From: Salinivirgaceae bacterium
Lineage (GTDB): Bacteria; Bacteroidota; Bacteroidia; Bacteroidales; SZUA-534
Assembly: GCA_016342715.1 (NCBI GenBank)
Contig: JAEINW010000003.1
Span: 604 to 64,603 of the forward strand
Direction: 5' to 3'
DNA: 64,000 nucleotides
Below are positions 16,569 through 57,748 of the stretch, piece after piece. The notes below the pieces were generated by a model that was not told the DNA's origin, did not search any database, and saw only the letters and a program-made list of their open reading frames with translations. The position numbers and the translations under genes were made by a program. Position 1 is the first letter of the stretch, and each line of letters opens with the position of its first letter.

Positions 16569-19500
16569 TTATATAATAATTAATCTTTTGGTAAATCTAT
16601 TATTTCCATTAGTAACTTCTATTATATAAATCCCTTTTTCCATATCCGAAGTGTTTATTAAAAATTCATTATTTAATGAGAGCAGACCTGTTTGTATTTT
16701 AATTACGGATCCCATTAGGGTTCGAATTCTCACTATTATATCTTTGTTTTTACTTTGAGGTATTTTAATATTCATCCAATTGTGTGCAGGATTTGGATAA
16801 ATTTCAAGATTGTTAACTTGTTGTGATTCTTTTACTCCAACAGATATTGATACTATTTTTAAATATTCATTTTCGAATCCACAAACAGAATTTAGTGCCT
16901 TTAAGCGAATGTAATAATTGCCCGATTCAAAATATTCATGCATGGGTGCTTCTAAGGTGCTTGTGGTTCCATCATCAAAATCCCAAATGTAAGAGTCGGC
17001 ATAAATGGAATGATTTTTTGTAGTAATGATATTTTCATTTTGTTCAAATGTAAAATATGAAGTGGGTTGTCTGTGTATATATGCAATTATAGGGTTTTTT
17101 TTACTTTCACATATTTCATTGCTATATGAGGCGTAGTAGGTTTTGGAAATTGAAAGTTCAGGTGTTGTAAAAGTGTTTCCAACAAGAAAAGGATCAGTAT
17201 CATCAATAGACTCGTACCAGTTTACTTGATTTGTGCCATTAATAGTAAAAGTAAAACTTGTTTTTATGCAGCTTGAATCAGCCAATGACAATGGAGGCGA
17301 TATTGTTTGGTAAAGTTCAATTGTTTCAGTTTTTGTATCAATACCAAAATAACTATAAACGGTTAATGTTATGTTGTAAACTCCTGGTTCATTGTAATAA
17401 TAGTCAACGTAATTTAAATTTGAAAAATCGCCATTTCCAAAATCCCATAAAATACTATCAAAATAATTAAGTGTAAGGTTGTAAAATTGCACATGGCCTG
17501 AACAATCTGATAAGATATTGTATTTATAATCAGCATTAATGGTTTGATTGTTACTTATTCCAGGGGAACCCCCAATCAATGGGCTTGATCGCCAATTTTC
17601 AGCTAGCGAATTATCAAATGTTTCATCTCTTAATTCAAGTGTATAACCATTTCCATCACACAGTGTAGGCCAGGGTAATTCATCGTTATAATTTACGGCA
17701 TTTATTACTTGCATTTGTGGACTGATAATTCGCACAATGTCAGATTTGTTAGATAACTTAAAGTTTAAATCCCCAGTTCTGTTTGAAATATTTGAATAGA
17801 TATTGCTAAATAAGGTATCGTTCTGATGAACCACAAAATATGATTTTGGATGCAAGATAATGCCATCTATAAATGAAAAAGTATTATCATTTTTGCTATC
17901 CATTATACTCCATCCGGATAAATTTATTGATGAATCAGTTGAATTGTAGATTTCAACCCAATCGCCCGAATTAAGAGTGTCCGATGAATTATAGTTTATT
18001 TCATTAATTATTATTGACTGACTATCAGAGAGTGTATACGAAAACGATGCACCCATATCGGCAAGGGTTCCATCTTCATCTAAGGGTGATAATGGATCTC
18101 CAGCATCTATGCAAGGAGAGAGTGAGCTTAATTCAAAATTAAAAGCAATTTCGTCAACAAATTCTGGGCTGCTGAAAAAATTACCAATTCCGGTTAATTG
18201 TTCTGTATTTGATAAGGAATAATTAATAATAATTGATGAATATTCATCAACGTAATGAGAACTTGAACGTGAATTTGCAAAAATGCAGTTTGATATTATG
18301 GCAGAACCACCACCATCGCCATAGTTTTTCACAAAACAAGCCACGGCAATATCATTTTCATAAAAGGTATTGTTCGAAATGGTTCCAAAGGAGTAATAAT
18401 CTTTAATTCCGACTCCCTGTCCGCAATACGAAATAATATTGTTTTTGATTATTGCAGTTGAAGCTTGTCCGATAGATATTCCCTTATCAATACAATTAGT
18501 TATAGTATTTCCTTCAATTAATATATTTTTCGCATCTTCTCCTAAATCAATTCCATCGCTATTATATCCAGTAAAACCACTTATTATATTGTTACGAATA
18601 ATTCCACCTGATAAATTGTCGTAATCAATAGCATCTGCATCATAGGATCCATTGCCAATTAATTTTGAATTTTCAACCAAAGCCGAATCAGCATACTTTA
18701 TATTAATTAAATCACTTGCAACCGATGAGTGAAAAAAACTGTTATGTATTTCAATTTTACCATATTCAGAATAAAAGGGTTGCTTTTCACCATTAATGGT
18801 TAACCCATTTATCAGTAAATTAGTATTATATGATGATAGCGTTGAGAAATGTTTTTTAAGATCGGAACCACATGTGCCATTAATTAATTGCACATGATTT
18901 AATATTGACTTACCTGTTCCGGAATCAAAACATAAACCACCCCAGTTTTTTGTATTAATAAACGAGCTTTCTTTAATTATAATTGGATTAGTTGCACTTC
19001 CATTAAGTTCGAGTGTTCCAAAAATAAAAATATTGCTTTTTTCAAACATTTTTATGGTTACCCCAGCTTCCACTATTAATTTTGCATTTGCTTGAATGGT
19101 AATGTCTCCAGATGAAAAGTAAGGAGAATTTTCTTGAGTTAATTCATAATTAGATGTTATGACCGAAGGAATATAGTTTTGATTATCTGGTTCAAAAACT
19201 GCAATTAAGGTATCGATTCCAATTTCAATACGGTTGATGATTTGGTTGGTGTCATTTGTGTTTTTCCAAAAGGCAAATTTATATCCGGGTTTTGCACTTG
19301 CCTGTATATCGGTTGAAATTCCAGTAAAGTATTCGCCTGTATTTATCGAGTCAGTTATAAAATGGTCATAAACATAAATATTTCCTTTTTGTATAGGTTC
19401 TACCTCAAAAGTAATACTATCCATTTCTGAAAGGTTAAAAAAGCTTGTGAGGTGTTGTTTTTGGTATGAGGGTCTGTTTTCAGCAAAAGTTTTCATAATT

Positions 19501-21386
19501 TCCACATTGGTTTCCCATTGTTCCATGGTTTCAAGTGGATCGCCGTAATGTGGATGAGTGAAATTTTTCCATCGCTCAATATGATAAGGCATTTCAGTTG
19601 CTATGCGATTTTTATTTTTTTCGATAATGTTTAATGCAGCTTTTGAGCTGTAAATGGTATTAAGCTGCGCTGTAAATTTATTTATAAACTGATTTTTAAA
19701 ATCATCATTCTTTAATAAATATTTAAACAATTTGGCAATTCCAATATTAGAAGTTGCATCAATTAGGCCATTGAAATTATAATGGGCATTATAATTATAG
19801 CTATCCCAATTCATTCCATATGAAACATCGGTATCCAATAAAATCCATCGCCACTTTTTGCCCATTTTATTTTCCTTCCAAAACAGCATGTTGGTATTTA
19901 GCCAATCTATATTTGCAATATATATTTCAAAAATCATGTAGTCGATAAAGGAGTTTATGTCAAGTAATGAGGCTACATAATTATAATTTGCAGGAAATAT
20001 CATTGAATTTTCTTCAGAATAAATGAAATCCAAAAGTGTATTGTAGTGATAGCTTGATCCTTCTTCAACCACTGGGGTATTACTCCATCGATATTCTAAA
20101 ATATCTGTATAGTCAGGATTTACCTGATGGTGCATTATTAAATAATCGAGATTGTTTTTTTCTCTAATATTATATATTCCCCAGTAAGCTCCATTTAAAT
20201 ATAATTTTGACGGTTGATAGGCTTGGCAATCAATATCAGTTTTATTAATTGTAAGATCATGTACGGTGCCATCGCGCATCATTGTATAAAAAGCATCGGG
20301 TGTCCCCGATGTTCTTAAGTATAAATCTTTGAATTGCGTATTTTCTCTTGTTGAAAAGAATTTATAATCTAAATAATCGGCATTATATTTACTTTTTGCA
20401 CTTACCGTAAAAGGTTTTTGAGGACCCGCAGACGAAGCTTGTCCAGATAGTCTTATGTCGGTTAGTTGAGAGATTTTTTGCTCATTATCATTCTCAAAAT
20501 ATTCAAAATTTGCTGGTATTTCAAATCCTCGTAATGAGTTGGTGTATATGCCAGTATTGTCATCCCAAAGGGTGTTTGGAAATGCGCTTAAAGCAATGGT
20601 AGGTAAATTATTAGTATGCTCGTTAAAAATGTATGAATTGGTTTTTATTAAGCTTGGAAAATGATCAGTTTCAAAAACTTTTGCCCGAATTATTACCGTT
20701 GTATCAATTAGTAGCGGTTCAGAATAAATGTTTGAGGAACTGTTTGGATTTGTGCAATCTGTTGTATAATGAATTACTGCATTTGGTTTATCGGTTGATA
20801 AGGTTACAATTTGCTGATTGTAAAAAAAACCTCCATTCGTGGAGAATTGAACTTCTGATGTGTATTTTGGTTTTGAAATTGGATCAAATATATTGGAATA
20901 TGCTGGCGTTGGTTCAGCAAAATAAAACCAGTTTCCAGTTGCATCGGGTTTTCTTCCATAGGGAATATCATTGAATTGCTGCCCATAATTAACAGAATCA
21001 ATTATTTCTCCCTCAGTATTTGCAATGGATATTTGTTCGCCAGATTTTGAAAGTTTAAAATTAGTATGTATTCCAAAATTATCAATTTCATTAAAACCAT
21101 CAGCCCAAATAATAATAAAACTATTTGAATCAATTATTATAGAATTTGAAATTTGAAATTTAGTAGGATTTGATAAGTCGTCACTTAAAAAATATCCATT
21201 TAAATCGATGGGTGTATTACTTGTATTGTATAATTCTATCCAATCAGAAAATGCATCGTTTCCGGTTAGCTTGTGAATGGTTGTTGCATTTGACGCTAAG
21301 AATTCATTTATAACTATTTGTGAATGTGATGAATTTATTACAGAAATAAATAGTATGATGCTAATTAGTAATGCTTTTGTTTTCAT
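16569..21386 (-). CDS. Giant secreted CotH-family protein with two lamin-tail (LTD) domains, beta-helix, PKD-like repeats and T9SS C-terminal sorting domain
   Basis: Signal peptide begins at the Met at 21386. LTD signatures IVINEFLASN..DWIELYNTS and IIINEINYNS..DWVEIYNS; central CotH-like region; parallel beta-helix repeats; C-terminal LEIYPNPAHNWMNI..GIYIIEV. Confidence 0.8.
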   Translation of the reverse strand: MKTKALLISIILFISVINSSHSQIVINEFLASNATTIHKLTGNDAFSDWIELYNTSNTPIDLNGYFLSDDLSNPTKFQISNSIIIDSNSFIIIWADGFNEIDNFGIHTNFKLSKSGEQISIANTEGEIIDSVNYGQQFNDIPYGRKPDATGNWFYFAEPTPAYSNIFDPISKPKYTSEVQFSTNGGFFYNQQIVTLSTDKPNAVIHYTTDCTNPNSSSNIYSEPLLIDTTVIIRAKVFETDHFPSLIKTNSYIFNEHTNNLPTIALSAFPNTLWDDNTGIYTNSLRGFEIPANFEYFENDNEQKISQLTDIRLSGQASSAGPQKPFTVSAKSKYNADYLDYKFFSTRENTQFKDLYLRTSGTPDAFYTMMRDGTVHDLTINKTDIDCQAYQPSKLYLNGAYWGIYNIREKNNLDYLIMHHQVNPDYTDILEYRWSNTPVVEEGSSYHYNTLLDFIYSEENSMIFPANYNYVASLLDINSFIDYMIFEIYIANIDWLNTNMLFWKENKMGKKWRWILLDTDVSYGMNWDSYNYNAHYNFNGLIDATSNIGIAKLFKYLLKNDDFKNQFINKFTAQLNTIYSSKAALNIIEKNKNRIATEMPYHIERWKNFTHPHYGDPLETMEQWETNVEIMKTFAENRPSYQKQHLTSFFNLSEMDSITFEVEPIQKGNIYVYDHFITDSINTGEYFTGISTDIQASAKPGYKFAFWKNTNDTNQIINRIEIGIDTLIAVFEPDNQNYIPSVITSNYELTQENSPYFSSGDITIQANAKLIVEAGVTIKMFEKSNIFIFGTLELNGSATNPIIIKESSFINTKNWGGLCFDSGTGKSILNHVQLINGTCGSDLKKHFSTLSSYNTNLLINGLTINGEKQPFYSEYGKIEIHNSFFHSSVASDLINIKYADSALVENSKLIGNGSYDADAIDYDNLSGGIIRNNIISGFTGYNSDGIDLGEDAKNILIEGNTITNCIDKGISIGQASTAIIKNNIISYCGQGVGIKDYYSFGTISNNTFYENDIAVACFVKNYGDGGGSAIISNCIFANSRSSSHYVDEYSSIIINYSLSNTEQLTGIGNFFSSPEFVDEIAFNFELSSLSPCIDAGDPLSPLDEDGTLADMGASFSYTLSDSQSIIINEINYNSSDTLNSGDWVEIYNSTDSSINLSGWSIMDSKNDNTFSFIDGIILHPKSYFVVHQNDTLFSNIYSNISNRTGDLNFKLSNKSDIVRIISPQMQVINAVNYNDELPWPTLCDGNGYTLELRDETFDNSLAENWRSSPLIGGSPGISNNQTINADYKYNILSDCSGHVQFYNLTLNYFDSILWDFGNGDFSNLNYVDYYYNEPGVYNITLTVYSYFGIDTKTETIELYQTISPPLSLADSSCIKTSFTFTINGTNQVNWYESIDDTDPFLVGNTFTTPELSISKTYYASYSNEICESKKNPIIAYIHRQPTSYFTFEQNENIITTKNHSIYADSYIWDFDDGTTSTLEAPMHEYFESGNYYIRLKALNSVCGFENEYLKIVSISVGVKESQQVNNLEIYPNPAHNWMNIKIPQSKNKDIIVRIRTLMGSVIKIQTGLLSLNNEFLINTSDMEKGIYIIEVTNGNNRFTKRLIII

Positions 21387-21589
21387 TGCGAAATGATTGT
21401 TGTGTATGAAATAAGACACATTTAACACATTTTACCCTATATTAAAAATTAAATATAACTCATAATGTTATGTAAAAAAAATACTGTTAATTTTGGGCTC
21501 AAATTAATTTTGCATATGAAATAGCCATAAGCAATTAATTAAAATACATAAGTTACCGAAATACAAAGTATTAATCAAAGTTTATACAC

Positions 21590-23244: not shown

Positions 23245-26200
23245 TTACACCTTAAAACCAATAATTAAAATATCGTCCATCTGATGTGTTTTACCGTCAG
23301 GATGATTCATCCAATCTTTAATAGTAGTATTTAATATTCTATGCTGCTCGGCAAAAGTTTTAGTGTGAATATCAACCAGTAGCTCACGCATATTTTTACG
23401 CATAAATTTTCGTTCTCTAGGACCACCAATTTGATCTTGAAAACCATCGGAGTACATATAAATACAATCGTCCTTTAGTAACTGAATTTTTGTGGCTGTG
23501 AAATCACTCATTTTAATATGATATCCAACAGGCATGCGGTCGGCTTTAAGTTCAGAGGCTTCGCTATTTCTAATAATAATTGCAGAGTTATAGGCTCCTG
23601 CAAAATTCATTTCTAAAGTATCAATATTAATAACGCAAATTGCCATGTCCATGCCATCTTTTGAGCTTCCGGCATAATCGCCTTGTTTTAATGACGAAAT
23701 TACATTTTGCCGCATCTGCCCAAGAATAATATCGGGAGCATCTATTTTTTGTTCTTTAACTATTTTATTTAAAAAACTCACGCCCAGCATACTCATAAAT
23801 GCTCCAGGCACACCGTGTCCTGTGCAATCGGCGGCTGTTACTATTAGTTGCCTATCAAGCCGCTCAATCCAATAGTAGTCGCCACTAACAATATGGCAGG
23901 GTTTGAAAAGTATAAACGCATCATCGGTATTTTGTTGTAAATTTTCAATACCGGGTAAAATTGCACGTTGAATACGTTCGGCATAATTTATACTGCCGGT
24001 TATTTCTTCTTTCTGACTTTGAATTTCATCCTTTTGTGCAACCACCTCTGCTGTACGTTCTTTCACTACTTTTTCAAGATGTGCTTTTTCTTTTAGTAAT
24101 TTTTTCTCGCGCCAGCGAATAAAAAGGTATAAAGCAACAATAAGAAACAGTATAATTATGGTTAAAAACCACAGTGTTTTCCAAAACGGAGCTTGAATAA
24201 CAAAATTATAAACTACGGGTTGCGACCAATTAATTCCATCGGCACTGGCTATTACTGAAAAGCTATATTTACTATTGGTTAAGCCGGGATAGGTTACTGA
24301 TGTGTTTGCTGTTGCAGGCGACCATTCTTTTTCATGCGGTGCAAGTTTGTATTTAAATATTACCTTTTCAGGATTTTTAAAATGAATACCCACATAGTCG
24401 AAAGTTACATGGTTTTGATGGTGGGGCAGCGAAAGTTTATTTGGATACGCATTCCATGCATCTGTATGAAAACCTTGAGCCTCCCAGTTTACATTTTCAA
24501 AAGATAGTCTTATGCCAGTTAAATGAACAGTGGGTGTTTTTGTAAGGGTATCTTCCATTTCGGGACGATAGCTGGTTAAGCCATTAACCGTTCCAAACCA
24601 TATATGTTTTTGTTCATCGCTACAAATGGCATTGTAGTTGGTTTCGCTCCAAATAAAACCATTGGATTTATCATACTGTCTCACATTTTTTACTTTTTTT
24701 ACATCGGTATCAAAAGTAAGTTTATTAAACCCATGGTTAGTGCCAACCATAAGGGTTGAGTCGTTATAAAACAGTAAGGAATTTATTGCCTTTGAATTTA
24801 ATATAGCCTGCGTAAATGGAGTAATTGTATCGGTAGTTGGGTTGTAATTATAAATTCCATTATTTGTTCCTATCCAAATCACATTATTTTTATCGGCCGC
24901 TAAGGTATGAATGCTTAAATCAAACAAGCCTTCCTGCTCGTCAAAGTCGCGATATTCACTGGTTTTTGCTCGAAAACGCGCCAATCCGCCAAGAGTTCCC
25001 ATCCAAATATTGTTAGCCTTGTCAGATATTACCGTTTGCACCTCGGGATTAATTAATCCTTGTTCCTCTGAGATGGTGTGTATTTGTTGTCCAGCAATTT
25101 CATTAAAACCTAAATCGGAGCCTACATAAATAGAACCATTGGGTGCATTGTACACACAGTTAATGTTGTTGTCGAGTAAGCCTTTGGCAGTAGTAAGGTA
25201 GTTGAATTGGTCATTAATAATTAAAAGACCTTGCCCTCTGGTGCCTGCCAATATACGTCCTTGATTATCAATATCGATAGTGGTTATCTCACTTGTTCTA
25301 TAAGCATTTGTTGCAGTAAAAGTGTGAACTTTTATTTGGTCGTTTTTTATCGATGCTAGGCCTAAACCTTGTTGGTTTGTGCCCAGCCAAAGCTGTCCCT
25401 TATCATCTGGTTTTATTGCCATAACGGAGGACCCCGGTAAGCCTTCGGCAACTGAGTAGTGAACCAATTGAAAGCCCTGAAATTTACTTAAGCCCTGACC
25501 TATCGATCCCAACCAAAGGTTTTTGTTGTTATCGCGGTAGATGCAAAATATTTGGCTGCCCAACAAACCATTGCTTGTTGAGATATTTTGTATGGTGTTG
25601 TTATTCGATCGGAATACACCATTTTTTTCCGAAGCAAACCAAACGCTGCCATCGGTATCGCAATGAATATCCCAAATTCTTAAATTTGCATCGGCGCTAA
25701 GCAAAGAACAAGGCGTAAATTCAGTGCTGTTTTTTTTCCATTTATAAGCTCCGGTATCCAGTGTTCCAAACCAGATATTTCCTTTTTTATCTTCAGCAAT
25801 ACTGGTTATGTATTTACTTGGTAAACGAATGGAGTCGTTAATATTTTTAATTTGAGGTTTGTTTTGGCTTAATGTAACTGTGCTTAATCCACCAAACATT
25901 GCAATCCATGTTTTACCATTGGAATCGTGCATTAAATCGAGCACAAAATCTCCAGCTAGGCCTTGTTGAGAACTGATATTTTGAATTTGGATGGAGTCGT
26001 TAAACGTGCTAATAATATTAACACCAGCATCGTTAGTGGCTGCCCACATTCGTCCTTTGTTATCGGGTAAAAGTTTGGTGATGACACTGCCCAGCAAGCC
26101 ATTTTCAGTAGTAATTGTTTTCCAGTTTGTACCATTGAATATACCAATACCTTTATCGGTGCCAAACCATATATTTCCCTGGCTGTCTTCAACAATGCTG

Positions 26201-26451
26201 CGTACAATATTTCCTGGCAATCCATTGCTGCGGTCTATAATTGAAAAATTAGTGCCATCGAAGCGTGCCGCTCCACTTTCGGTACCTACCCAAAGATATC
26301 CGCGAGCATCTTCATTTATACAAAACACGGTTGACTGGGGCAATCCTTGCTCCATATTGTAGTTTGTGAAATTGTACAATTGCCCGAATGTACAAGTACA
26401 GGGGGCAATTATTGCTAAAATAAAAGTAATCAGGATATAATATTTTTGCAT
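23245..26451 (-). CDS. Periplasmic beta-propeller/Y_Y_Y sensor with one TM helix and a cytoplasmic PP2C (SpoIIE) phosphatase
   Basis: Repeated Reg_prop-like blades (..G.IWFGT..G), a TM helix (LWFLTIIILFLIVALYLFI), a coiled coil, then SGDYYW..AADCTGHGVPGAFMSMLG. Confidence 0.85.
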   Translation of the reverse strand: MQKYYILITFILAIIAPCTCTFGQLYNFTNYNMEQGLPQSTVFCINEDARGYLWVGTESGAARFDGTNFSIIDRSNGLPGNIVRSIVEDSQGNIWFGTDKGIGIFNGTNWKTITTENGLLGSVITKLLPDNKGRMWAATNDAGVNIISTFNDSIQIQNISSQQGLAGDFVLDLMHDSNGKTWIAMFGGLSTVTLSQNKPQIKNINDSIRLPSKYITSIAEDKKGNIWFGTLDTGAYKWKKNSTEFTPCSLLSADANLRIWDIHCDTDGSVWFASEKNGVFRSNNNTIQNISTSNGLLGSQIFCIYRDNNKNLWLGSIGQGLSKFQGFQLVHYSVAEGLPGSSVMAIKPDDKGQLWLGTNQQGLGLASIKNDQIKVHTFTATNAYRTSEITTIDIDNQGRILAGTRGQGLLIINDQFNYLTTAKGLLDNNINCVYNAPNGSIYVGSDLGFNEIAGQQIHTISEEQGLINPEVQTVISDKANNIWMGTLGGLARFRAKTSEYRDFDEQEGLFDLSIHTLAADKNNVIWIGTNNGIYNYNPTTDTITPFTQAILNSKAINSLLFYNDSTLMVGTNHGFNKLTFDTDVKKVKNVRQYDKSNGFIWSETNYNAICSDEQKHIWFGTVNGLTSYRPEMEDTLTKTPTVHLTGIRLSFENVNWEAQGFHTDAWNAYPNKLSLPHHQNHVTFDYVGIHFKNPEKVIFKYKLAPHEKEWSPATANTSVTYPGLTNSKYSFSVIASADGINWSQPVVYNFVIQAPFWKTLWFLTIIILFLIVALYLFIRWREKKLLKEKAHLEKVVKERTAEVVAQKDEIQSQKEEITGSINYAERIQRAILPGIENLQQNTDDAFILFKPCHIVSGDYYWIERLDRQLIVTAADCTGHGVPGAFMSMLGVSFLNKIVKEQKIDAPDIILGQMRQNVISSLKQGDYAGSSKDGMDMAICVINIDTLEMNFAGAYNSAIIIRNSEASELKADRMPVGYHIKMSDFTATKIQLLKDDCIYMYSDGFQDQIGGPRERKFMRKNMRELLVDIHTKTFAEQHRILNTTIKDWMNHPDGKTHQMDDILIIGFKV

Positions 26452-26454
26452 TTT

Positions 26455-28302
26455 TTATTGATTCTGCTTTTTAATAAAAATAAACTGCCCACCCTCGTCG
26501 CCAGTATTTACAATAGGACTAAAGCCTGGAGTTTGGTTAGAGTTATTAATTACGGCTACTTTAAGGTCGTTGTATAGTTGGCTGGCATCAAAAAATTGAT
26601 TCTCGTTATTTGTCAATGATTTAAGCAAATAATAAGTAAAAACAGAATGTCCGTCTTTTCCACCATCCATAACTGGTTCAATGCCGCCTGAGGTAAGGGC
26701 TGTGCGCGATTGTTTTGAGTAAATTTGATTGTAATACTTAAATGAATTTTCGTAAGGTATTGTTAAGGTTTTTCCACGGAAAATATCCCCACTAAAACAG
26801 GCATCGGCAATCAAAAAAGTATGTTTCGATTTTATGCCGTTTAAAAACGATTGGATATCGGTGTTGGCAATAAGTCCTGAAATTGAACTGCTTGTGGCAT
26901 CCGAAGGAACCCAGAAGCCCCGCTGTAAGGCTTCGTTATAATCGCCATGGCCTGAATAAAAAATCAGTAGGTTATCGTTCTCTTTAATGTTAGCCATTAG
27001 CCATTCGTATTCTTTTAGAATGTTTGCTCGTGTTGCTTGCTCGTTATATAAAGTTCGAACCGATTGAAATTCATAACGACTTGTTAATTGTGCTTCAACC
27101 GCTTTAGCATCGTTCACTGCATTTTTTAGCGGTTTCCAATCACCTGAATAATTATTGATGCCAATAATTAAAGCAAAATATCGGCCAATGCTTACTTCCT
27201 GCATGGCTTTTGAAGCACCCAGACCTTTTAAGGGGTCGTTACTGCTACGATATAAAGCTAATTGCTCGTTTTGTTGAGGCGAGTTGTTTTGTATGGCTTG
27301 ATTTAAAGCTAATTCGAAATGTTGAACTTCGCCTTTTTCAAGTTGTGCACCTTCTACTTTTAACTCAATGGGTATTTTATTTAAATCGATGTTTTTATTT
27401 ATGTAAAAAACAAGTTCTATTTCTTTTGAACTTTGTGCTTTTAGTTGCAAATCGCTTTTGTTTTCGAGCATCATAAGCGATGATGGTAGGTTATATCTGA
27501 GCTTTAAGTTATTTGCATCGATGCTCGAATTGTTGTTAATGGTAAATTTCATAGTAACAGTTTCACCAGCCAAAACTTTTCCAGATGGACTTGAGAAGCT
27601 TTCGTTTGAAACCATGAGTTTTGGGAGCTTATCTGCATTGTTATCAGATAGTTGGCATACATGCAAATAATCGATTTGCACCGACGATTTTGCTGCTACC
27701 TGAAAACCAATACCATTGCCAAAGAAGGGTTCAAAAGGCATTTTGTGAACCAATTCACGGTTTATAAAAAAGTAATAACTATTGTCAACCTTGCGAACGG
27801 TTAAGGTATTGTAGGTGTAATTGTTGATGAGTTTTGATGACTTTACTGGAACAAAATCGGTAAATTCGCCTGTAAATTTATCGATGGTAAATTGCCCTTG
27901 TCCGTTAATAAAGAAATCAAACTGTTTTCCTTGGTCAATTGATTTCCCCCATTGCAATCCATAAAATTTATTTTGAATACCTTTATCAAGACGAATTTTA
28001 AGGTCAATTTCAAAGTCTTTACTTTGATCGATAATAACCTCTTTAAAGTCTTCTTTTGGGACATCTTCATACGATTGAAAAAAAAGAGTACACTCCTGAA
28101 TATTTTCGAACCATATATCTTCCTTGATTCCCAAATACCAATTGTTGTTATTGTTATTAAAATCTTCAATAAACAAAGCTGTTTTTTGATTGGGAGCAAA
28201 ACCTGAATAATTTTCAGCTACAGTATGAATCTGTGCATTAAGGGCTATTGAAAAAGAAAAGATTGAAAACTGCACTAATAATAAAATAGATTTGAGAGAC
28301 AT
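26455..28302 (-). CDS. Secreted caspase-family (peptidase C14) protein with N-terminal jelly-roll-like and Ig-like domains
   Basis: Signal peptide; His/Cys dyad contexts LLIFYSGHGD and FLIADACFSG. The stop lies 3 nt upstream of the PP2C-sensor start codon. Confidence 0.8.
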   Translation of the reverse strand: MSLKSILLLVQFSIFSFSIALNAQIHTVAENYSGFAPNQKTALFIEDFNNNNNNWYLGIKEDIWFENIQECTLFFQSYEDVPKEDFKEVIIDQSKDFEIDLKIRLDKGIQNKFYGLQWGKSIDQGKQFDFFINGQGQFTIDKFTGEFTDFVPVKSSKLINNYTYNTLTVRKVDNSYYFFINRELVHKMPFEPFFGNGIGFQVAAKSSVQIDYLHVCQLSDNNADKLPKLMVSNESFSSPSGKVLAGETVTMKFTINNNSSIDANNLKLRYNLPSSLMMLENKSDLQLKAQSSKEIELVFYINKNIDLNKIPIELKVEGAQLEKGEVQHFELALNQAIQNNSPQQNEQLALYRSSNDPLKGLGASKAMQEVSIGRYFALIIGINNYSGDWKPLKNAVNDAKAVEAQLTSRYEFQSVRTLYNEQATRANILKEYEWLMANIKENDNLLIFYSGHGDYNEALQRGFWVPSDATSSSISGLIANTDIQSFLNGIKSKHTFLIADACFSGDIFRGKTLTIPYENSFKYYNQIYSKQSRTALTSGGIEPVMDGGKDGHSVFTYYLLKSLTNNENQFFDASQLYNDLKVAVINNSNQTPGFSPIVNTGDEGGQFIFIKKQNQ

Positions 28303-28386
28303 ATCTAATAATTTTTGATGTGTGTTTTTTTATAAAAAATATTGGGTTTTTGAGAAGTCAATTACGTCATGTTTTTTGAATAACTA

Positions 28387-28424
28387 TTTATCAAATCGTA
28401 CAATTTGGAGCTCAAATTGATAAA
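28387..28424 (-). promoter_or_regulatory. 38-bp conserved motif, copy 1 (TTTATCAATTT-GAGCTCC-AAATTGTACGATTTGATAAA on the minus strand)
   Basis: Same 11+7+20 architecture as 32197-32234 and 32450-32487. It points toward the caspase gene, ending 85 nt from its start codon. Confidence 0.6.
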
Positions 28425-28620
28425 ATAATAGCGGTTTGCATATATTAAAATGAGGTAGGTATCGTGAAAGTTATTTTTTCAACAAGACTAAACGCAATAT
28501 AATCCCCTCGTTTACTTGATATTATATAACTTTTTTAAAAGTTAAAAAAAAATTAACGGAGTTTATTACATTCAGCAACTTTGCTTATATTTAAGACAAG
28601 ATAAAAAACCACAAAAAAAC

Positions 28621-30865: not shown

Positions 30866-32122
30866 ATGGATAAAGTTGTCTTAAAGAAGATAATAATTGA
30901 AAACAGGGAGTTTATTCAAAATCTCGAATTGACTACCAGACATCAAAACATTGATATTGCAGCAAACTATATATTTTGTGGCATCCGACGGTGTGGAAAA
31001 AGTTTTATGCAATTCCAGCGTATGAAGCAAATTATGAAGCAGTCCAGTGAGTTGGAATTCATTTATATCAATTTTGAAGATGAACGCTTCATAGAATTCA
31101 ACTACCTTGATTTTGACTTGATATTGGAATGTGCTTTTGAACTTTATAAAAAGAAGACGGCACTTTTTTTTGATGAAATACAGAACATTGAAAATTGGGA
31201 AAAGTTTGCACGACGCCTGGCCGATACTGGTTATTTGGTTTATATATCCGGAAGCAATGCAAAAATGTTAAGTAAAGAAATGGCGACTACCTTGGGTGGA
31301 AGATATCTGATTGAAGAGGTTTATCCCCTATCATTTATCGAATACTTAAGTTTTAAATCTATTAAACCAGAAATAAATTTTGAATATTCGAATCAGCGAT
31401 TCGAAATTAAAAAACAATTTGATACGTATTTTTACCAAGGAGGTTTTCCTGAATTACTGAAATACCAAAACTCAAGAGAGTATCTTAGTAGCGTTTATAT
31501 GAAGGTTTTTTATGGCGATTTAATGGCACGCAATCATCTTCAAAATGAACAAATATTAAAATTGTTGATTAAAAAATTGGCAGAAAGTGTGAATAATGAA
31601 ACATCGATAAACCGAATTAAAAATCTGATAATATCTACCGGATTAAAAGTTGGCAACAATACCATTACCGATTATTTAATCCATTTGTTTGATTCTTACC
31701 TCATTTTTCCACTCAATAATTACGCTTCGAATTTCACCGAACGCGAAACAAAAAAGAAATACTACTTTGTTGATCAGGGAATTCTGAACCTTTTTATTAC
31801 TGACCAAAACACTAAATTATTGGAGAATATTGTGTTTATACACCTTTACATCCAATTTAAAGATAAACTGTTCTACTACAAGCGTAAGATGGAGATTGAT
31901 TTTTATATTCCAGAACAAAATCAACTCATTCAAGTTTGCTACTCACTTTCAAACATTGAGACCAAACAACGCGAAATAGCTGCCTTGCAATGGGCAATGA
32001 ATGAATTGAATATAACTAAGGCTACCATAATTACTTACGATGAAGAGGAAATAATTAAGCTATCGGAAGCAATGTTAACGATTGAACTTGTACCTATATG
32101 GAAATGGCTATTAACCACTTAA
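30866..32122 (+). CDS. AAA_14 / DUF4143 ATPase (COG1373-like)
   Basis: P-loop-like GIRRCGKS, Walker B-like LFFDEIQ, and a C-terminal DUF4143-like region. Confidence 0.75.
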   Translation: MDKVVLKKIIIENREFIQNLELTTRHQNIDIAANYIFCGIRRCGKSFMQFQRMKQIMKQSSELEFIYINFEDERFIEFNYLDFDLILECAFELYKKKTALFFDEIQNIENWEKFARRLADTGYLVYISGSNAKMLSKEMATTLGGRYLIEEVYPLSFIEYLSFKSIKPEINFEYSNQRFEIKKQFDTYFYQGGFPELLKYQNSREYLSSVYMKVFYGDLMARNHLQNEQILKLLIKKLAESVNNETSINRIKNLIISTGLKVGNNTITDYLIHLFDSYLIFPLNNYASNFTERETKKKYYFVDQGILNLFITDQNTKLLENIVFIHLYIQFKDKLFYYKRKMEIDFYIPEQNQLIQVCYSLSNIETKQREIAALQWAMNELNITKATIITYDEEEIIKLSEAMLTIELVPIWKWLLTT

Positions 32123-32556: not shown

Positions 32557-35500
32557 ATGAATTACTTATATACTAAAACTTGCTTGGCGAGTATTCTAAT
32601 GGGTATGCTTTGCATATTTCAGTTTTCTAGTAAAGCACAAAACAATTGCTTGGATTTTGATGGCGTTGATGATTACGTATCAACCACAGCCATTAACCCT
32701 GCAAGTTTTACTTATGAGGCATGGATTAACCCCGATAACACAACAAATGACCAAGCTATAATTTCCTCTTTAAATGAGATTGGTTTAAAAGGATCCGAAT
32801 TACACATTAGCTCGAATGCAGTCTCGCTTACCATGAGAAATAATACCGAATGGCATAATATTATTACATCTGCTGGTGTTATAAATACCGGAAATTGGTT
32901 TCATTTGGCTACTACTTATGATGGAACTACAGCTATTATTTACATAAACGGGGAGCAAGCAGTATCGGAAACGGAAGCTACCTACATTGCTGGCAGTACC
33001 CCTCTCACTATTGGAAGAAGATCGAGTGGATTACTAAACTTTGATGGTAAAATTGATGATATCTGCGTTTGGAACAGGGCACTTACTCAAACAGAAGTTC
33101 AAGCTAGAATGAATACAAGTATAGCTGGTATCGAAAGTGGACTCCTTTTAAATTATAATTTGAATCAAGGCATTGCTGATGGCAATAATACTGGTATTAC
33201 CTCAGCGACCGATGCAACAACAAATGGAAACGACGGGACGCTTTCAGGTTTTGCTTTAACAGGCACAACTTCAAACTGGACTAAAGGAGCGCCAAAACCT
33301 GAGCCTACAAATCATGCTACAATATTTACTGCAAGTTTAAATGGAAGTAATATTGAATTAGCTTGGAGTGACGAAGCCTCTGCTGAAGGATATTTAATAC
33401 TTGCCTCAACTACAAACTCTTTTACCGACCCTATCGATGGTGTGGAGTCCAGCGTAGATAAAGATTTAAGCGATGGCTCAGTTGTTATTAAAGTGCCCCA
33501 GGGAACGGAAACCTACTCTGGTTTTACAAACGCTGCAACTGGTAATACTTATTATTTCCGTATTTACCCTTACAATAATTCTGGCTTAGATATTAACTAC
33601 AAAACAAACGGAACAGTTCCTGAAAGTTCAGTATTTTTACCAAAAACAGAACCAAGCAATCATGCAACGGCTTTTACTGCCAACGTAAATAGCGGAAATA
33701 TTGAACTTAGCTGGATAGATGAACCTACTGCTGATGCATACTTAATTTTGGCATCAACCACAAATACTTTTACTGTGCCCACCGATGGGAATATTCCTGT
33801 TGCTGATAATGATTTAGCAGATGGCTCAGGAACTATTTTCGCATTGCAAGGAGACGAAATTTACTCAACTTGGCTAAATACTTCCTTTGGTACAACATAC
33901 TATTTTCAGATATATGCTTATACCATAACGGGATCTTACCCAAATTACAATACAAATCCAACCATTCCAACAGTAGACATTATAATACCATATCAACTTT
34001 TCTCTTATCATTCAACATCAATATCTGATTATAACCAAGGAGCAATAGCCTGGGGCGATTTTAATAACGATGGTGCTTTAGATATAATTGCAACGGGAAA
34101 AACAGGTGGAAATGTAACGAGTTTGTACAAAAACAATGAAGACAAAACATTTAGTTGGCAAACTTCCTATTCAGGTGTTCAGGGCTCTATTGTTTGGTGT
34201 GATTATGATAACGACAATGATCTTGATTTTGTTATGGCAGGTAGCGGGGTTACCAGCATATTTAGAAATGAGAGTGGTTCGTTTGTAAAACAATCCGACA
34301 TTTCATTTATGGGCGTTACATCGGGTTCTGTCGATTGGGGTGATTTTGATAATGATGGATTTATGGATTTAATTGTTACCGGCCTCGATAACATCAGCGT
34401 TGAAATCACCAAAATATACCACAATAACGGCAACAATACGTTTCAGGAATTAAATATTGATAATATTATTGGAATACAACATGGTGTAGTTTCTTGTGGA
34501 GACTATAATAATGATAAATTCTGCGATTTTATAATTGTTGGCGGTTATTTTGATAATTACGATATGGGTAAATTATACAAAAGCAATGGTGATGGTACTT
34601 TTACAGAACAGTCAGATATTGAAATACCACCATTAAATATGGCTAGCGCAGATTGGGGCGATTATGACAATGACGGTGATTTGGATCTGCTACTTTCCGG
34701 TATCCATAAAACATCAAACAATGAAGTAAATACAGTGTACCAAAATAACGGTAATAATACGTTCACTGAACAAACTGGTATTACATTAGACGATCCTACC
34801 GACTATCGCCATTCAATAGCTTGGGCTGATTACGACAACGATGGTTATCTGGATATTTTCCAATTGGTTGGCGATTACACTCAAATTTATCATAATGATA
34901 AAGATGGTTCATTTACCAAGAAATCGCTAACAGAATATTCAATAGCTCCTGGCAATATGGCCTTTGGCGATTTTGATAAAGACGGAGATCTTGACTTATT
35001 GGTTACCGACAAATCTAGCAACGATTACGCAACCACACTTTACAATAACAATTGTGCTACAATAAATACAGCACCCACGGTACCCAATGGGCTTACTATT
35101 ACCCAAACAAAAGATAACGCAATATTAAGCTGGAATAAAAGTACCGACAATACTACGCCATCTGAAGGTTTAACCTACAATATTCGCATTGGAACAACTG
35201 CGGGTGGATGCGATTTATTGTCGCCGCAAGCTTTAACTGACGGAACGCTTCTTATTCCAGCAAATGGCAACAACAGTACTGATACCTCCTATGGTTTTTC
35301 ATGCGATCCAGAAACGTATTATTGGGCAGTACAAACCATTGACAAATCCTATGCAGCTAGCTCTTTTTCCAGTGAACAAACATTTATTCGCACCTCATTC
35401 CCGGCAACCAATTTAAGCGCACAAATTAATTCAAGCAGTTCGCTAATGTTGCGATGGGAAACCGGAAGTTTATCACGACGTGCTGTTTTCTGTAAACAGG

Positions 35501-38500
35501 CATATTCTGGATCAGCAACACCTGTCGACGGCGATTACTACCTTGCCGACCCATATTATGGAAAAGGCGACGAAATTGGTGCAACCGGTTGGTATTGCGT
35601 TTACAATGGCAAAGCGGATAGCACTATGGTTTATGGTCTGGATGCCGATTATGGTTATATTTTCCATGTGTTGGAATATACCAGCCAGTCAGAAACAACC
35701 GATTATGTACTGGATGTAGCAGATGGCAATCCAGCGGTTTTTGGTGTAACTGAATTTTTATCGCAACCCAGTTCCATATCAGGTATAACAACCAACTTGT
35801 CAGGTGGCACTTCCAGTTGGGTTGATTACAACAATAACGGATATCTTGATTTGTTTTTAACCGGGAGCTCATCATCCAGTTATTTATACGCAAATAATGG
35901 TGATGGTTCTTTTACCGAAAATTCAATTTTTAACTCAAATTACCATATTACTGAAATCGCTTGGGGCGATTATAATAACGATGGATTTCAAGATGCCATT
36001 GCTTCGTGTGATTCAAATGTTTATACCAGTGTATATAAAATTGACAGCACTTATGACTCCAGTGCTAATAGCTGGATTTATGATTCTACGTATACAGGAT
36101 ATACCACTCAAACAAATTATTTTTCAGTAATATATAAGAACAATAATGGCGAAGAATTTATAAAACAAAGTATTACAAACATTCCCCCCGCTTATGACGG
36201 AAGCATAAAATGGGGCGATTATAATAATGATGGGCTTTTAGATTTGATTTTAACGGGCAGAAGTACTTCTATTGTTAATACAAGTTCTATTTCATACACT
36301 AAACTATTCAAAAATAATGGAGAAAATAGTTTTAGCGAAGTATCAGAAGAATTTCCCGGAGGGGGAAATGGTGATGTGGAATGGGGTGACATTGATAATG
36401 ATGGAGATTTAGATATCGTTTTAGCAGGAAATAATGTTTCAAAAATTTACATTAACAATAATGGAACATTTGATGAACAAACAACATTGCAATTAACGCA
36501 AATAGATAGCCAAGCCACTATTAGACTTGCCGATTTTAATAACGACGGTTTAATTGATATTATATTATTTGGATACACTGATAGCAGACACATATCAGAA
36601 ATTTATCGCAATACCGGAGATGGGCAGTTTAATAAGGAGTCTACATGTGCAATTACTACCATAACATCAGGTTCTGTTAATATAGGCGATTATAATAATG
36701 ATGGCCTTATAGATGTTTTGGCAATAGGATATGCAACTTGGTATGGCTGGCTATCTGGCGAAGCCCCATTTGCCAAATTATACCTTAACATAAGTAATTC
36801 CAATGACAATTTAATCGAATTTGAAGAAGTTAAACAAAACGGGTTAATTGGTTCTAGTAATGGAGCCTCCAATTATGGTGATTATGACAATGATGGAGAT
36901 TTAGATGTAATTATAACCGGTCAGAATGATTTAATTGCCTATACCAAATTTTACACCAATAATACCATCATGAATGCCGGTAGTTTTGCCCCTAATAAAA
37001 CCCCTACCGTTCCACAAAACCTCACCAAAGAACCCCTTCGGGGAGGTGTACTCCTTAGTTGGAATGCTATTACTTCCGACGAAACCCCTTCTTCAACCAT
37101 GAGTTACAATATTCGGGTAGGTACCTCAAAAGACAGCATGAACCTGTATGCTCCAAATTTTGTAGATTCGGTTAATTTTAAAAACCGCACGGTTACACAA
37201 ATGGGTAATGCCGGGCTAAATACCTTTTATAAAATTTATAACCTGCCCGATTTAGCTGATGATAAATACTATTATTGGCAGGTACAAGCTGTGGATGGTG
37301 GATTTTTGGGAGGCGAATGGTCACGGGTAGATTCATTCCAAATTCAGTCGGCACAAGCCTATTTTTCCTATAATATTGCGTGTAAAAGCGACACCACCTT
37401 TTTCAAAGATGAATCGGTTGCCTACGATGGTATTACAGCCTGGAAATGGAATTTTGGCGACAATTCCGGATTAAACTACGAACAAAACCCAAGCCATGTA
37501 TTTCAATCTGCTGGGGAACATAGTGTGCAATTGGTTGTAACCAATAGTCAAGGTAAAACCGATACCATTACCCAAATTGTTTATGTGAAACCTACGCCTT
37601 CTGTTTCATTTACCGCCACCGATGGTTGCGGAGCATTCTCAACTGAATTAGACAATTTAACAAGCACTACCGGTTTAATTAATAGCTGGTTCTGGAATTT
37701 TGGCGATGGGCAAACATCAATTTATGGCGACCCATTAAGTCATGTGTATGGTGCAACAGGTAATTTTACTATTACGCTTTCTGCCTCCGACACTAATGGA
37801 TGTTCCTCAACAATCAGTCACGATATTGTGGTTACCACCAAACCCAATACCTCTCTCACCCTTGAATATGGAACTTTGATCAATGGAAGTCCCAGTTTCT
37901 GCTTGGGCGACAGTGTAATGTATTCTGTGGCTGCAAATGCTAATTACAGCTACCAATGGCAGCGCGATAATTCAAATATTGCCAATACTACCAATCAGTT
38001 AAAAGTAAAAACGGTTACAGGCAATTACAAGGTAATTATAAGCAATAATTTAGCGACCACTTGTGCTGATACCTCCGAGGTAAAAACCATTACCGTGAAG
38101 CAAGTTCCAGCACCTCCAGTTCTGGAAGCTGAATCAGCTGTTTCATTCTGTCAAGGGGACAGTGTTAAAATAACTTTAGGAAGTTATTCCGGAGTTACAT
38201 TTAACTGGTTTAAAAATGGCGGTTCGCTCGATGGCTCACAAAACTATTTTATGGCAAAAGAATCAGGGAATTATACCAGCAGGGTAACATTATCAAATAA
38301 TTGCTATTCAAGTTCAGAGATTCCTGTTGTGGTTAATGTTAAGCCCAACCCACCAACTCCATCACTAAACTATGGCGATTCAACTATTTGCAGTGGAATT
38401 ACACTTAATTATTCAACCGTTAATAACCCAGCGTTGACTTATCAATGGTACAGTAATAACGACCCTATTCCGGGCGCAACCAACAACCTATTTCCTATTG

Positions 38501-54945: not shown

Positions 54946-55198
54946 GTAGATGCTAAGCTAATTGGTTTTTCATCAATGCGGCAATATGCATTACATATTT
55001 ACTAGTTGATAGAAAAAAACGTTATGCGAATTATAGGCTGTAAATTTATTTTGAAGTGTAACCCAGCCCGAAACTTCAGTTTTACTCTGTATTATGGTTA
55101 AAAATTATAGCAATTCATTACTATTTCCTGTCATATTATTGCAATCACCAATTCCTAAATAGTATATTTGTAATCTAAAAAATCTAGAACTGCAATTG

Positions 55199-55968: not shown

Positions 55969-55969
55969 A

Positions 55970-57334: not shown

Positions 57335-57346
57335 AAAAGTACTGAA

Positions 57347-57682: not shown

Positions 57683-57687
57683 CCAAG

Positions 57688-57720: not shown

Positions 57721-57748
57721 TAAATACTTGAAAGATTTAAATCAAACT

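Follow-up and report, generated by a model that had tools for sequence, protein, structure and literature searches.

An exported caspase-like protein and a propeller-PP2C sensor are inherited as a pair across Bacteroidota and may form an envelope-signalling cassette

What an exported caspase-like protein and a membrane-anchored phosphatase might do together, when their genes lie end to end, is the question raised by one locus in a 64,000-nt stretch of DNA from a Salinivirgaceae bacterium (the whole stretch is called the window here). The first gene, P0001 (positions 26455 to 28302, minus strand), encodes a 615-aa exported caspase-like protein (C14, metacaspase/orthocaspase type; ORF call, Pfam, AF2 and Foldseek), and the second, P0002 (23245 to 26451, minus strand), a 1,068-aa sensor phosphatase (ORF call, Pfam and PDB homology). 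The coordinates, strands and lengths of both ORFs were as originally predicted, as was the 3-nt gap from caspase stop to sensor start (26452 to 26454, minus strand), where the junction reads TAA-AAA-ATG. Because the spacer is only 3 nt long, the sequence implies co-transcription of the two genes, and probably also their translational coupling.

P0001 starts with a predicted Sec signal peptide (residues 1 to 23; 28234 to 28302, minus strand), cleavage of which would expose Gln24. This residue is near-invariant (at least 90% in alignment A2), and 21 of 22 sensor-linked caspase homologues open with a hydrophobic leader, mostly ending in A-Q; a “Q-rule”, that is, Gln after the signal-peptide cleavage site, is described for Bacteroidota (PMC5837995, PMC10653852). 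The AF2 model of P0001 (mean pLDDT 86) consists of a ConA-like/CBM66-like beta jelly roll at residues 38 to 218 (27649 to 28191, minus strand; strands at 40 to 218, pLDDT mostly 83 to 96), an Ig-like beta-sandwich at 228 to 332 (27307 to 27621, minus strand), a disordered linker at 342 to 367 and a caspase fold at 370 to 612 (26467 to 27195, minus strand; pLDDT 94 to 98 across most of 370 to 500). Foldseek matched the jelly roll to CBM66 (4b1m, 4azz) and GH16 (3d6e) structures, and this module is likely to bind a ligand. Among its ESM Atlas neighbours are 3keto-disac_hyd and GH16-like clusters, a match we regard as a lead only. The Ig-like region gave a weak DUF11/Ig match at residues 241 to 284 (Pfam), with CARDB/DUF11 matches in orthologues. 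The linker holds the motif YRSSNDPLKGLG (27217 to 27252, minus strand; family consensus Y-R-G-x-x-D-P-L-K-G-L-N; pLDDT 36 to 48), of which R352 is kept in 67, G360 in 62 and K359 in 49 of 79 homologues; it is not confined to sensor-linked caspases (22/36 linked versus 14/34 unlinked).

Assignment of the C-terminal domain to C14 rests on a profile score above the curated threshold (Peptidase_C14, PF00656, residues 376 to 595; 77.3 bits, cut-off 21.4), canonical His-Cys motifs and a caspase-hemoglobinase fold, for which the best Foldseek matches were AtMC9, Candida and yeast metacaspase-1, GSU0716 and MALT1 (E values of 2e-10 to 1e-8). A specific assignment as an EACC1-associated caspase (NF047832) was rejected at 55 bits against a cut-off of 140. 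The domain reading of the original prediction (signal peptide, jelly roll, Ig-like domain, caspase) was thus borne out by Pfam, AF2 and Foldseek, and the catalytic contexts that it called intact, YSGHGD (26935 to 26958) and DACFSG (26788 to 26805), do not belong to a domain that is dead on alignment: His452 (codon 26947 to 26949, minus strand) and Cys502 (26797 to 26799, minus strand) are invariant in 79/79 aligned homologues. D398 and D500 are likewise invariant; D398 sits in LKNAVNDA, aligned to LRGCINDA of Yca1, and the two residues may, by comparison with the TbMCA2 structure, form the acidic S1 pocket with which metacaspases accept a basic P1 residue (Arg/Lys). The metacaspases and orthocaspases Yca1 (4F6O), TbMCA2 (4AF8), AtMC9 and GSU0716 (3BIJ) have in common with P0001 the fold, the His/Cys dyad, the “L-x-x-x-x-N-D-A” motif and, two positions ahead of the catalytic Cys, an Asp; orthocaspases are described, in the accessible text of PMC6426788, as cutting after basic residues. 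P0001 differs from them in being Sec-exported, in carrying lectin-like and Ig modules and in its operon coupling to a membrane sensor; among the matches found, no solved homologue is described as exported or sensor-coupled in this way.

The sensor, too, was read correctly in the original prediction. Its periplasmic part (residues 24 to 757; 24181 to 26382, minus strand) comprises two Reg_prop beta-propellers (188 bits, Pfam) and a Y_Y_Y domain (residues 691 to 752; 23.7 bits, slightly below the cut-off of 26.6), and is homologous to the ectodomain of BT4663 (4A2L, E = 2.4e-55) as well as to 3V9F and 3OTT/3VA6. A single transmembrane helix, KTLWFLTIIILFLIVALYLFIR (residues 758 to 779; 24115 to 24180, minus strand), leads into the cytoplasmic part (23254 to 24114, minus strand), which consists of a putative coiled-coil linker (about 780 to 850, read directly off the sequence) and a SpoIIE-type PP2C domain (PF07228, residues 867 to 1066), the latter a member of the PP2C family at 60.5 bits against a cut-off of 25. 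The PP2C domain of SiaA (PDB 6K4E) matches residues 786 to 1067 (E = 1e-30). Invariant in 32/32 sensors are Q24 and, in the cytoplasmic part, D858, D875, G878-H879-G880, D935, D1002 and D1006, of which we take the acidic residues to be the metal-binding motifs; judged by these residues, the PP2C domain is intact.

Across Bacteroidota, the caspase and propeller-PP2C genes are passed on together. The gene-neighbourhood check named in the original prediction found the pair conserved among orthologues, among diverged paralogous pairs and across a class-wide sample. In 5/5 related genomes examined, the top match to P0002 sits near the caspase orthologue: the two adjoin in three (G013, G019 and G001), the sensor is next but one in G002, where a Fic/Bro-N gene is inserted, and in G021 the orthologues occupy abutting contig ends. 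In the forward direction, 80 related caspase loci were fetched, 79 of which were analysable and 62 had at least 1,500 nt downstream. A Reg_prop sensor with PP2C was the next same-strand gene in 23 of these 62, at spacers of −4 to 130 nt; one further sensor was convergent and two were cut or split. A different gene came next in 36/62 (in L035, which is among them, the sensor directly follows the inserted gene), and no family recurred among the other genes downstream of caspases in the 62 loci. No caspase in these loci was paired with a sensor that has a kinase or cyclase output. In the reverse direction, 21 class-wide sensor relatives (E ≤ 1e-125) had a caspase ORF directly upstream in 10 cases, across eight genome families, and none in 11, six of these coming from a single genome family, in which the conserved surroundings are different. 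Genes combining Reg_prop with PP2C are rare (by coordinate comparison, four sensor-HMM ORFs overlap SpoIIE matches in the 5.5-Mb genome), and the pairing is far above chance. The linkage is not obligate, with 12 or more changes of its state over the caspase tree. Conservation of the pair, the invariant dyad and the export signals on both proteins support the claim that the two genes are one functional unit. Literature searches found no paper describing a caspase and propeller-PP2C pair, in agreement with the original prediction, which knew of no characterised example.

The pair occurs in several forms. The window's genome holds a diverged second pair, a TPR-Ig-caspase with its sensor, on another contig (C76); such pairs are present in G000, G001, G013 and G019, and G001 also has a TPR-PP2C paired with a TPR-caspase. 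The TPR-Ig-caspases are about 20% identical overall to the lectin-like variant, and their sensors 31 to 32%. Across sensor-linked caspases, the caspase domain and the sensor are constant and the N-terminal module varies (lectin-like, WD40, WG_beta_rep, CARDB/Ig, DUF2846 or TPR; WD40 in 8/19 scanned), some having no such module and a separate FGE-sulfatase gene instead. The cassette type varies by N-terminal module, and the window's pair is its lectin-like/Ig variant, set apart from the TPR-Ig pair also by a clade-specific divergent AraC-type membrane regulator. Pairwise distances between caspase domains correlated with those between ectodomains (Spearman 0.76; 0.50 without the TPR pairs), a relationship that is confounded by shared descent. 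For the PP2C domains of the same sensors the correlation was weaker (0.32; 0.22 without the TPR pairs), as was the partial correlation with the caspase domain (0.12, versus 0.47 for the ectodomain; observed value reached in 0/999 Mantel permutations), which may reflect less signal in the PP2C domain.

The regulator is P0003 (28621 to 29754, plus strand), a 377-aa protein with a multi-pass membrane domain and a C-terminal AraC-type HTH (Pfam HTH_18), transcribed divergently from the pair. Its homologues (49 to 62% identity) are divergent from the caspase gene in 5/5 of the closest loci with upstream DNA (L034, L035, L036, L039 and L040), and it is kept beside the pair only in this closest clade. 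The 318-bp divergent intergenic region (28303 to 28620, by gene coordinates) should hold the promoters of both the pair and P0003; consensus scans of this region were uninformative. Partner switching is recognised by a substrate and a kinase encoded with the phosphatase, and this locus has neither. As originally stated, no STAS, RsbW or sigma partner lies nearby: profile searches of the window's contig gave no STAS, SiaC or sigma-70 r2 match, and its sole RsbW-like HATPase_c_2 gene (55543 to 55968) belongs to a separate, hydrogenase-like sensory operon 27 kb away. Genome-wide there are 32 SpoIIE matches, 7 STAS matches, 16 SiaC-family matches (15 above cut-off) and, above cut-off, 5 HATPase_c_2 matches, of which 4 are small ORFs of RsbW size; by coordinate comparison, some SiaC-family genes adjoin other PP2C genes.

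Three known systems resemble parts of this arrangement. The Bacteroides HTCS sensors (BT4663, 4A2L/4A2M; 3V9F; 3OTT) have the same two-propeller and Y_Y_Y ectodomain followed by one transmembrane helix. P0002 itself cannot be classed as an HTCS, having a PP2C as its cytoplasmic part and no histidine kinase, receiver or AraC HTH. The locus also differs in having no PUL around it, a peptidase rather than glycan-degrading enzymes as the partner gene, and an AraC-type HTH only in the separate protein P0003. PorU, a cysteine peptidase of the Bacteroidota envelope, shares its peptidase clan with caspases; unlike P0001, it is not a C14 peptidase. It works with PorZ, which has a BT4663-like double propeller and a C-terminal beta-sandwich; according to the accessible text of PMC8545088, PorZ binds glycan and, once loaded, docks more tightly to the PorU sortase. 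PorZ and PorU are cell-surface T9SS parts that have no signalling output, and Pfam found no T9SS C-terminal domain (Por_Secre_tail, CHU_C) in P0001 or P0002; as a PorZ (NF052228), P0002 scored 104 bits against a cut-off of 260. SiaABCD of Pseudomonas aeruginosa is described as a partner switch in which SiaA is a membrane PP2C (PMC7647112). P0002 is likewise a membrane-anchored sensor with a C-terminal PP2C (NF038263, E = 1.8e-48), and the window's genome is likewise rich in SiaC-family genes. P0002 is not a SiaA orthologue, because its equivalog score was 165.6 bits against a cut-off of 700 with only the C-terminal 280 residues aligned. Its input, a double propeller with Y_Y_Y, is unlike that of SiaA, its operon has no SiaB, SiaC or SiaD gene, and SiaA has no co-transcribed exported peptidase.

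The reading we prefer, at a probability of roughly 45%, is that P0001 and P0002 form one envelope-signalling cassette, in which a periplasmic co-sensor protease feeds a PP2C partner switch. Because both proteins are exported or membrane-inserted by Sec signals, P0001 and the double-propeller domain of P0002 would meet in the periplasm, where P0001 would act as co-sensor. Its variable N-terminal module (here the lectin-like jelly roll and Ig domain) would capture a cue, probably a glycan or glycoprotein of the envelope or from outside the cell, and the constant caspase domain would then act on the propeller ectodomain, itself constant, or together with it, by docking, cleavage or both. The cytoplasmic PP2C, so switched, would dephosphorylate a switch protein of the SiaC or STAS type whose gene lies elsewhere in the genome. 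A bacterial protease-activated receptor seems rather unlikely: here the caspase would be held at the propeller and, on target capture by the interchangeable N-terminal module (lectin, WD40, TPR or others), would cleave the ectodomain or a tethered segment, switching the PP2C irreversibly. Receptor cleavage, if true, would explain the strict active-site conservation and the co-variation of caspase domain and ectodomain, and also the fixed gene order and near-zero spacer, as stoichiometric co-synthesis of a consumable pair. P0001 might even be a transpeptidase, like PorU, instead of a hydrolase.

A ligand-processing enzyme would account for the invariant active site no less well than one that acts on the sensor. 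P0001 might leave the sensor untouched and, guided by its N-terminal binding module, cut after Arg/Lys in a protein or glycoprotein of the envelope or from outside the cell, the propeller domain binding the released product. Bacteroides hybrid two-component sensors receive their oligosaccharide from PUL enzymes by the same logic, and in Bacillus subtilis the PAS-PP2C phosphatase RsbP needs the hydrolase RsbQ. The dyad conserved in all 79 homologues, the carbohydrate-binding-module-like N-terminal fold, the tight operon coupling and the homology of the P0002 ectodomain to that of BT4663, an oligosaccharide sensor whose ligand is a glycan, are all consistent with such an enzyme. We nonetheless find it doubtful, since a sensor pocket for released products should vary with the N-terminal module, and the sensors are alike across lectin, WD40, TPR and FGE partners; moreover, the part that co-varies with the ectodomain is the constant caspase domain, and the known Reg_prop ligands met here are glycans, not peptides (PorZ, in the accessible text of PMC8545088).

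The peptidase could instead share an operon with the sensor and take no part in signal perception, as an envelope maintenance or maturation enzyme or as a target co-dosed with the sensor. The frequent loss of linkage (at least 12 changes, 36/62 other next genes, 11/21 sensors without a caspase) would fit this, and OmpA-family or TolB-like/OmpA genes precede the pair in some loci, which suggests a general envelope context. We consider it improbable, as pairs are found again at about 20% (caspase) and 31% (sensor) identity and with at least five N-terminal modules, the caspase gene invariably preceding the sensor gene at a very short distance. Besides, these caspases have no other gene family as a repeated companion, and the sensor type is rare, at four genes in 5.5 Mb. 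Least credible, very unlikely in our judgement and without support, is the conflict module that the original prediction offered as an alternative, with the caspase as a death or attack effector under sensor control. Fusions of caspase domains with modules of WD40, TPR or FGE type are described in bacterial conflict systems (PMC7159879, accessible text), the PADLOC “caspase” model matches P0001 (residues 376 to 533, E = 9e-21) and a PDC-S01-like ATPase gene lies 2.5 kb from the pair. That match is to the generic caspase domain only, however; P0002 has no PADLOC match, the EACC1-type model stays below its threshold, and no NTPase, toxin, immunity or effector-associated component is present. The exported caspase sits on the sensor's input side, not under its control. 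Envelope proteins and a regulator make up the conserved neighbourhood of the pair, to which neither toxins, immunity genes nor the PDC-S01-like gene belong; the genes that flank the pair have housekeeping roles or encode T9SS adhesins.

The conservation of this tightly linked pair in many Bacteroidota points to an unstudied route by which signals from the cell envelope may pass into the cell.

The exported caspase-like protein P0001 (615 aa; 26455-28302, minus strand) and the sensor phosphatase P0002 (1,068 aa; 23245-26451, minus strand) are encoded by adjoining ORFs whose junction reads TAA-AAA-ATG, confirming the lengths, coordinates and 3-nt gap of the original prediction. From this spacing we infer co-transcription. 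Promoter and terminator scans were uninformative: they returned 29 sigma-70-like sites (21.2 ± 5.3 in shuffles), 4 terminator-like sites (5.2 in shuffles; none on the minus strand between the two genes) and 116 occurrences of the Bacteroidota -7 motif TANNTTTG (110 ± 11, chance level). Peptidase_C14 was matched at residues 376-595 of P0001 (Pfam; 77.3 bits against a cut-off of 21.4), and the motifs YSGHGD and DACFSG are both where they had been predicted. For P0002 the matches are Reg_prop repeats at 188 bits, Y_Y_Y slightly below cut-off (23.7 bits) and a SpoIIE-type PP2C domain at residues 867-1066 (60.5 bits against a cut-off of 25). In the AlphaFold2 model of P0001 (79 homologues as input; mean pLDDT 86), a signal helix is followed by a beta jelly roll at residues 38-218 and an Ig-like sandwich at 228-332; a linker modeled as disordered (342-367) then leads to the caspase fold (370-612). 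In Foldseek searches the C-terminal domain resembled the metacaspases AtMC9, yeast and Candida metacaspase-1, TbMCA2 and GSU0716, as well as MALT1. Matches of the jelly roll were to CBM66, to a GH16 glucanase and, in clostridial neurotoxin binding domains, to the lectin-like half, which makes it a ConA-like lectin/CBM fold.

Both proteins carry Sec export signals: the hydrophobic leader at each N-terminus ends just before Gln24, a residue invariant in 32/32 aligned sensors and nearly invariant among the caspases. Gln after the leader is described as the Bacteroidota signal-peptidase-I “Q-rule” (PMC5837995, PMC10653852). A lipobox Cys directly ahead of the cleavage site is absent from both P0001 and P0002, as is a T9SS C-terminal domain. 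P0001 is thus expected to be a soluble periplasmic protein, sharing its compartment with the 734-residue ectodomain of P0002.

An orthologue search of P0001 in 60 relatives plus its own genome recovered full-length or contig-cut orthologues (61-78% identity) in genomes G019, G021, G013, G002, G023 and G006, and a shorter one in G001 (318 aa, with a separate FGE-sulfatase-domain gene ahead). Those of G006 and G023 were cut by contig ends and left out of the profile check of neighbors. The best P0002 match lay by the caspase gene in 5/5 genomes searched (39-62% identity, full length). In G013 and G001 the sensor gene is directly 3' of the caspase gene; in G019 it follows at a distance of about 340 nt, and in G002 an inserted Fic/Bro-N gene separates the two; in G021 the sensor starts one contig and the caspase gene ends another. 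The inserted G002 gene (locus L024, contig C75, 8497-9378, minus strand) encodes 293 aa, and the orthologous locus is otherwise collinear.

With one genome scanned per species, the best 80 of at least 598 loci encoding caspase-domain relatives were examined with profiles built from the PP2C and sensor paralogues of the organism's own genome; 79 were analyzable and 62 had ≥1,500 nt downstream (L095 was left out of the neighbor count, its caspase ORF having been removed by the overlap filter). Within this best-80 set, a Reg_prop sensor with PP2C was the next same-strand gene in 23/62 loci (spacers -4 to 130 nt). The sensor gene was convergent to the caspase gene in one further locus, cut or split in two, and placed after the inserted gene in one (L035, which is G002); five shorter loci ended within a sensor-like ORF. 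The remaining downstream genes of the set (PheT, IspD, DUF2851, T9SS cargo, peptidases and others) formed no recurrent family. Every complete sensor ORF adjoining a caspase at the 62 loci carried PP2C, and the only sensor-only ORFs were cut or split ones. Chance adjacency is negligible, because only 4 of the 13 sensor-HMM ORFs in the organism's own 5.5-Mb genome overlap a SpoIIE match (coordinate comparison).

The reverse scan used the ectodomain as query against 300 genomes evenly drawn from the class; with the top three candidates of each genome scored, 21 loci reached E ≤ 1e-125. A caspase-profile ORF lay directly upstream in 10 of these, from eight genome families, and 6 of the 11 sensors without an upstream caspase came from a single genome family, f58. 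In that family the sensor gene is accompanied by a tandem Reg_prop sensor gene and by no caspase (L118, L123, L127, L130, L133), and 5/5 loci checked for it had a divergent GT2 glycosyltransferase (L118, L127, L130, L133 and L120, the last without the tandem sensor). The f58 arrangement is a different conserved context for the sensor type of P0002. Six weaker reverse-scan loci had no caspase (0/6), and 5/6 lacked PP2C. On a quick caspase-domain tree, the 12-row clade holding P0001 (support 99) comprises eight linked loci, three with contig-cut sensors and one of unknown state; across the whole tree the linked state requires at least 12 changes. Gene-neighborhood analysis, one of the checks proposed in the original prediction, thus bore out conservation of the pair, and the locus counts and tree together show that it is inherited together and is common and ancient, not obligate.

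It is also worth noting that one pair (L051, JBLNAO010000123.1) comes from a MAG labeled Chloroflexota; it is about 50% identical to the Bacteroidota pairs and nests among them on the tree, and mis-binning and gene transfer are both possible. At L067, L070 and L079, OmpA-family or TPR/PD40/OmpA (TolB-like) genes lie directly 5' of WD40-caspase and sensor pairs, which hints at a peptidoglycan or envelope context.

A second pair is present in the organism's own genome (contig C76), where a 775-aa protein with TPR, Ig and diverged caspase domains precedes a 1,063-aa Reg_prop/Y_Y_Y/PP2C sensor, followed by a thioredoxin-like gene. The same trio recurs in G001, G019 and G013, and G001 has, in addition, a TPR-PP2C gene with a TPR-caspase gene behind it. 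In a 12-sequence alignment including these diverged pairs (identity to P0001 down to 20%), His452 and Cys502 are invariant, so a dead caspase, which would have spoken against the original prediction, was not found. Pfam analysis of 19 further sensor-linked caspases placed WD40 repeats in the N-terminal part of eight, CARDB/DUF11-type Ig domains in three, WG_beta_rep in one and DUF2846 with an Ig-like domain in one, and gave no match in six (one of these is 306 aa long with an FGE-sulfatase gene ahead). A signal peptide was predicted at the start of 21/22 sensor-linked caspases and at a later Met in the 22nd. The pattern is therefore that of a cassette whose sensor and catalytically intact caspase domain stay constant, while the exported, predicted binding module varies.

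Caspase-domain distances correlated with ectodomain distances over 31 pairs (Spearman 0.76; 0.50 without the TPR pairs) and with PP2C-domain distances of the same sensors at 0.32 (0.22 without the TPR pairs). Partial correlations were 0.47 for the ectodomain and 0.12 for PP2C, and the observed value was reached in 0/999 Mantel permutations. These values point to co-adaptation between caspase domain and ectodomain, the parts that meet in the periplasm, but are not proof, as the pairs share descent and PP2C may carry less signal. The linker of P0001, disordered in the model, carries the strongly conserved YRSSNDPLKGLG (motif Y-R-G-x-x-D-P-L-K-G-L-N, 27217-27252, minus strand; R352 in 67/79 and G360 in 62/79). 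A role as a sensor-docking peptide was rejected, the motif being carried by 22/36 linked and 14/34 unlinked caspases; it is a feature of the caspase subfamily, not of the pairing. Speculatively, it could be a pro-segment, or a site of autoprocessing whose P1 residue is basic.

Both active sites are intact. In a profile search against solved structures, the L-K-N-A-V-N-D-A segment of the caspase family aligned with LRGCINDA of yeast metacaspase-1; D398 within it and D500, two residues N-terminal of Cys502, are invariant and presumably correspond to the acidic S1 pocket behind the Arg/Lys specificity of metacaspases. Orthocaspases are described as cleaving after basic residues (PMC6426788). On the sensor side, the acidic and GHG motif residues of PP2C are all kept in 32/32 aligned sensors, and the nearest solved relative of the P0002 domain is that of SiaA (6K4E, E 1e-30). 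P0002 is not itself a SiaA orthologue (165.6 bits against a cut-off of 700). In the Pseudomonas aeruginosa partner switch, SiaA and the kinase SiaB are reported to set SiaC phosphorylation (PMC7647112). Profile searches of the organism's own genome returned 32 SpoIIE matches, 16 SiaC-family matches (15 over cut-off), 7 STAS matches, 24 sigma-70 region-2 matches and 5 HATPase_c_2 matches over cut-off, four of them small RsbW-like ORFs. Given these tallies, it is probable that many sensor phosphatases share a smaller number of switch proteins as their targets; the substrate of P0002 is most likely one of the SiaC/STAS-type proteins encoded elsewhere in the genome. Several PP2C genes adjoin SiaC genes on contigs C26 and C35 of this genome, and three PP2C genes stand in a row on C25.

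No STAS, SiaC or sigma-70 region-2 match was found on the window's contig, in agreement with the earlier remark that PP2C has no partner nearby. The sole RsbW-like gene of the contig (55543-55968) was rejected as a partner, since it belongs to an operon (55196-58486, plus strand) of DRTGG, HATPase_c_2 (RsbW-like, 141 aa), [FeFe]-hydrogenase-like Fe-S protein (454 aa), second DRTGG and PHP-domain genes, which looks like a sensory-hydrogenase regulatory cluster. Flanking the pair are a convergent MazG-like gene downstream and, 318 bp upstream, a divergent gene whose 377-aa product combines a multi-pass membrane domain with an AraC-type HTH. Farther out are a PAP2 phosphatase, TauE, a rhodanese, an AAA_14/DUF4143 ATPase and two giant T9SS cargo proteins (1,619 aa with CotH kinase, lamin-tail, beta-helix and PKD, 16569-21428, minus strand; 2,748 aa with LamG, FG-GAP, Ig and PKD, 32557-40803, plus strand). 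At L041 and L091, giant T9SS cargo genes stand divergent from the pair.

Our preferred inference is a co-sensor mechanism, in which the variable N-terminal module would pick the cue (the CBM-like fold of the jelly roll makes a glycan or glycoprotein probable here), the constant caspase domain would act on or with the constant sensor ectodomain, and PP2C would pass the result onward. The nearest precedent found lies in PorZ and PorU of the T9SS: PorZ is reported as a double propeller like that of BT4663, a Bacteroides hybrid two-component sensor; it binds glycan and docks to the cysteine-peptidase sortase PorU, more tightly when glycan-loaded (PMC8545088). In the main rival reading, the peptidase does no more than make the ligand of the sensor; the conserved active site fits this equally well, but a constant sensor combined with a variable module is a poorer fit. 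It is less likely that the two genes share an operon without sharing signaling, since the two gene types are found together again in strongly diverged pairs (about 20% and 31% identity), with five or more N-terminal modules and very short spacers, and no other gene family recurs beside these caspases. A defense role, the conflict-module alternative of the original prediction, is also less likely and was rejected: the caspase is exported and lies on the input side of the sensor, and the sensor has no PADLOC match. The AAA_14/DUF4143 ATPase (418 aa; 30866-32122, plus strand) matched the PADLOC candidate defense model PDC-S01 (E 4e-94), and this gene is outside the set of conserved neighbors of the pair. 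A similar gene is convergent to the caspase gene at L083.

In the full-text literature outside subscription-only papers, no paper was found coupling a C14 peptidase to a Reg_prop or PP2C sensor, in accord with the earlier statement that no characterized example was known, and nothing on exported caspases was found in the searched passages of the eLife survey of caspase-containing conflict systems (PMC7159879). The parts are individually of known kinds; together they make an undescribed variant of membrane PP2C sensor. The lectin-like variant is new here, as are the finding that one genome can carry two variants, the breadth of N-terminal modules, the counts of linkage in both the forward and the reverse direction, and the co-variation result. 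A Bacteroidota genome can encode PP2C sensor phosphatases by the dozen as orphans (SpoIIE was matched 32 times here), and this two-gene cassette is simple, widespread and open to in vitro testing. If the exported caspase homologue is indeed wired to this class of sensors, the swappable ligand-binding module would offer a handle on what propeller sensors detect, and the poorly understood caspase homologues of prokaryotes would gain a concrete physiological role in envelope signaling, not cell death.
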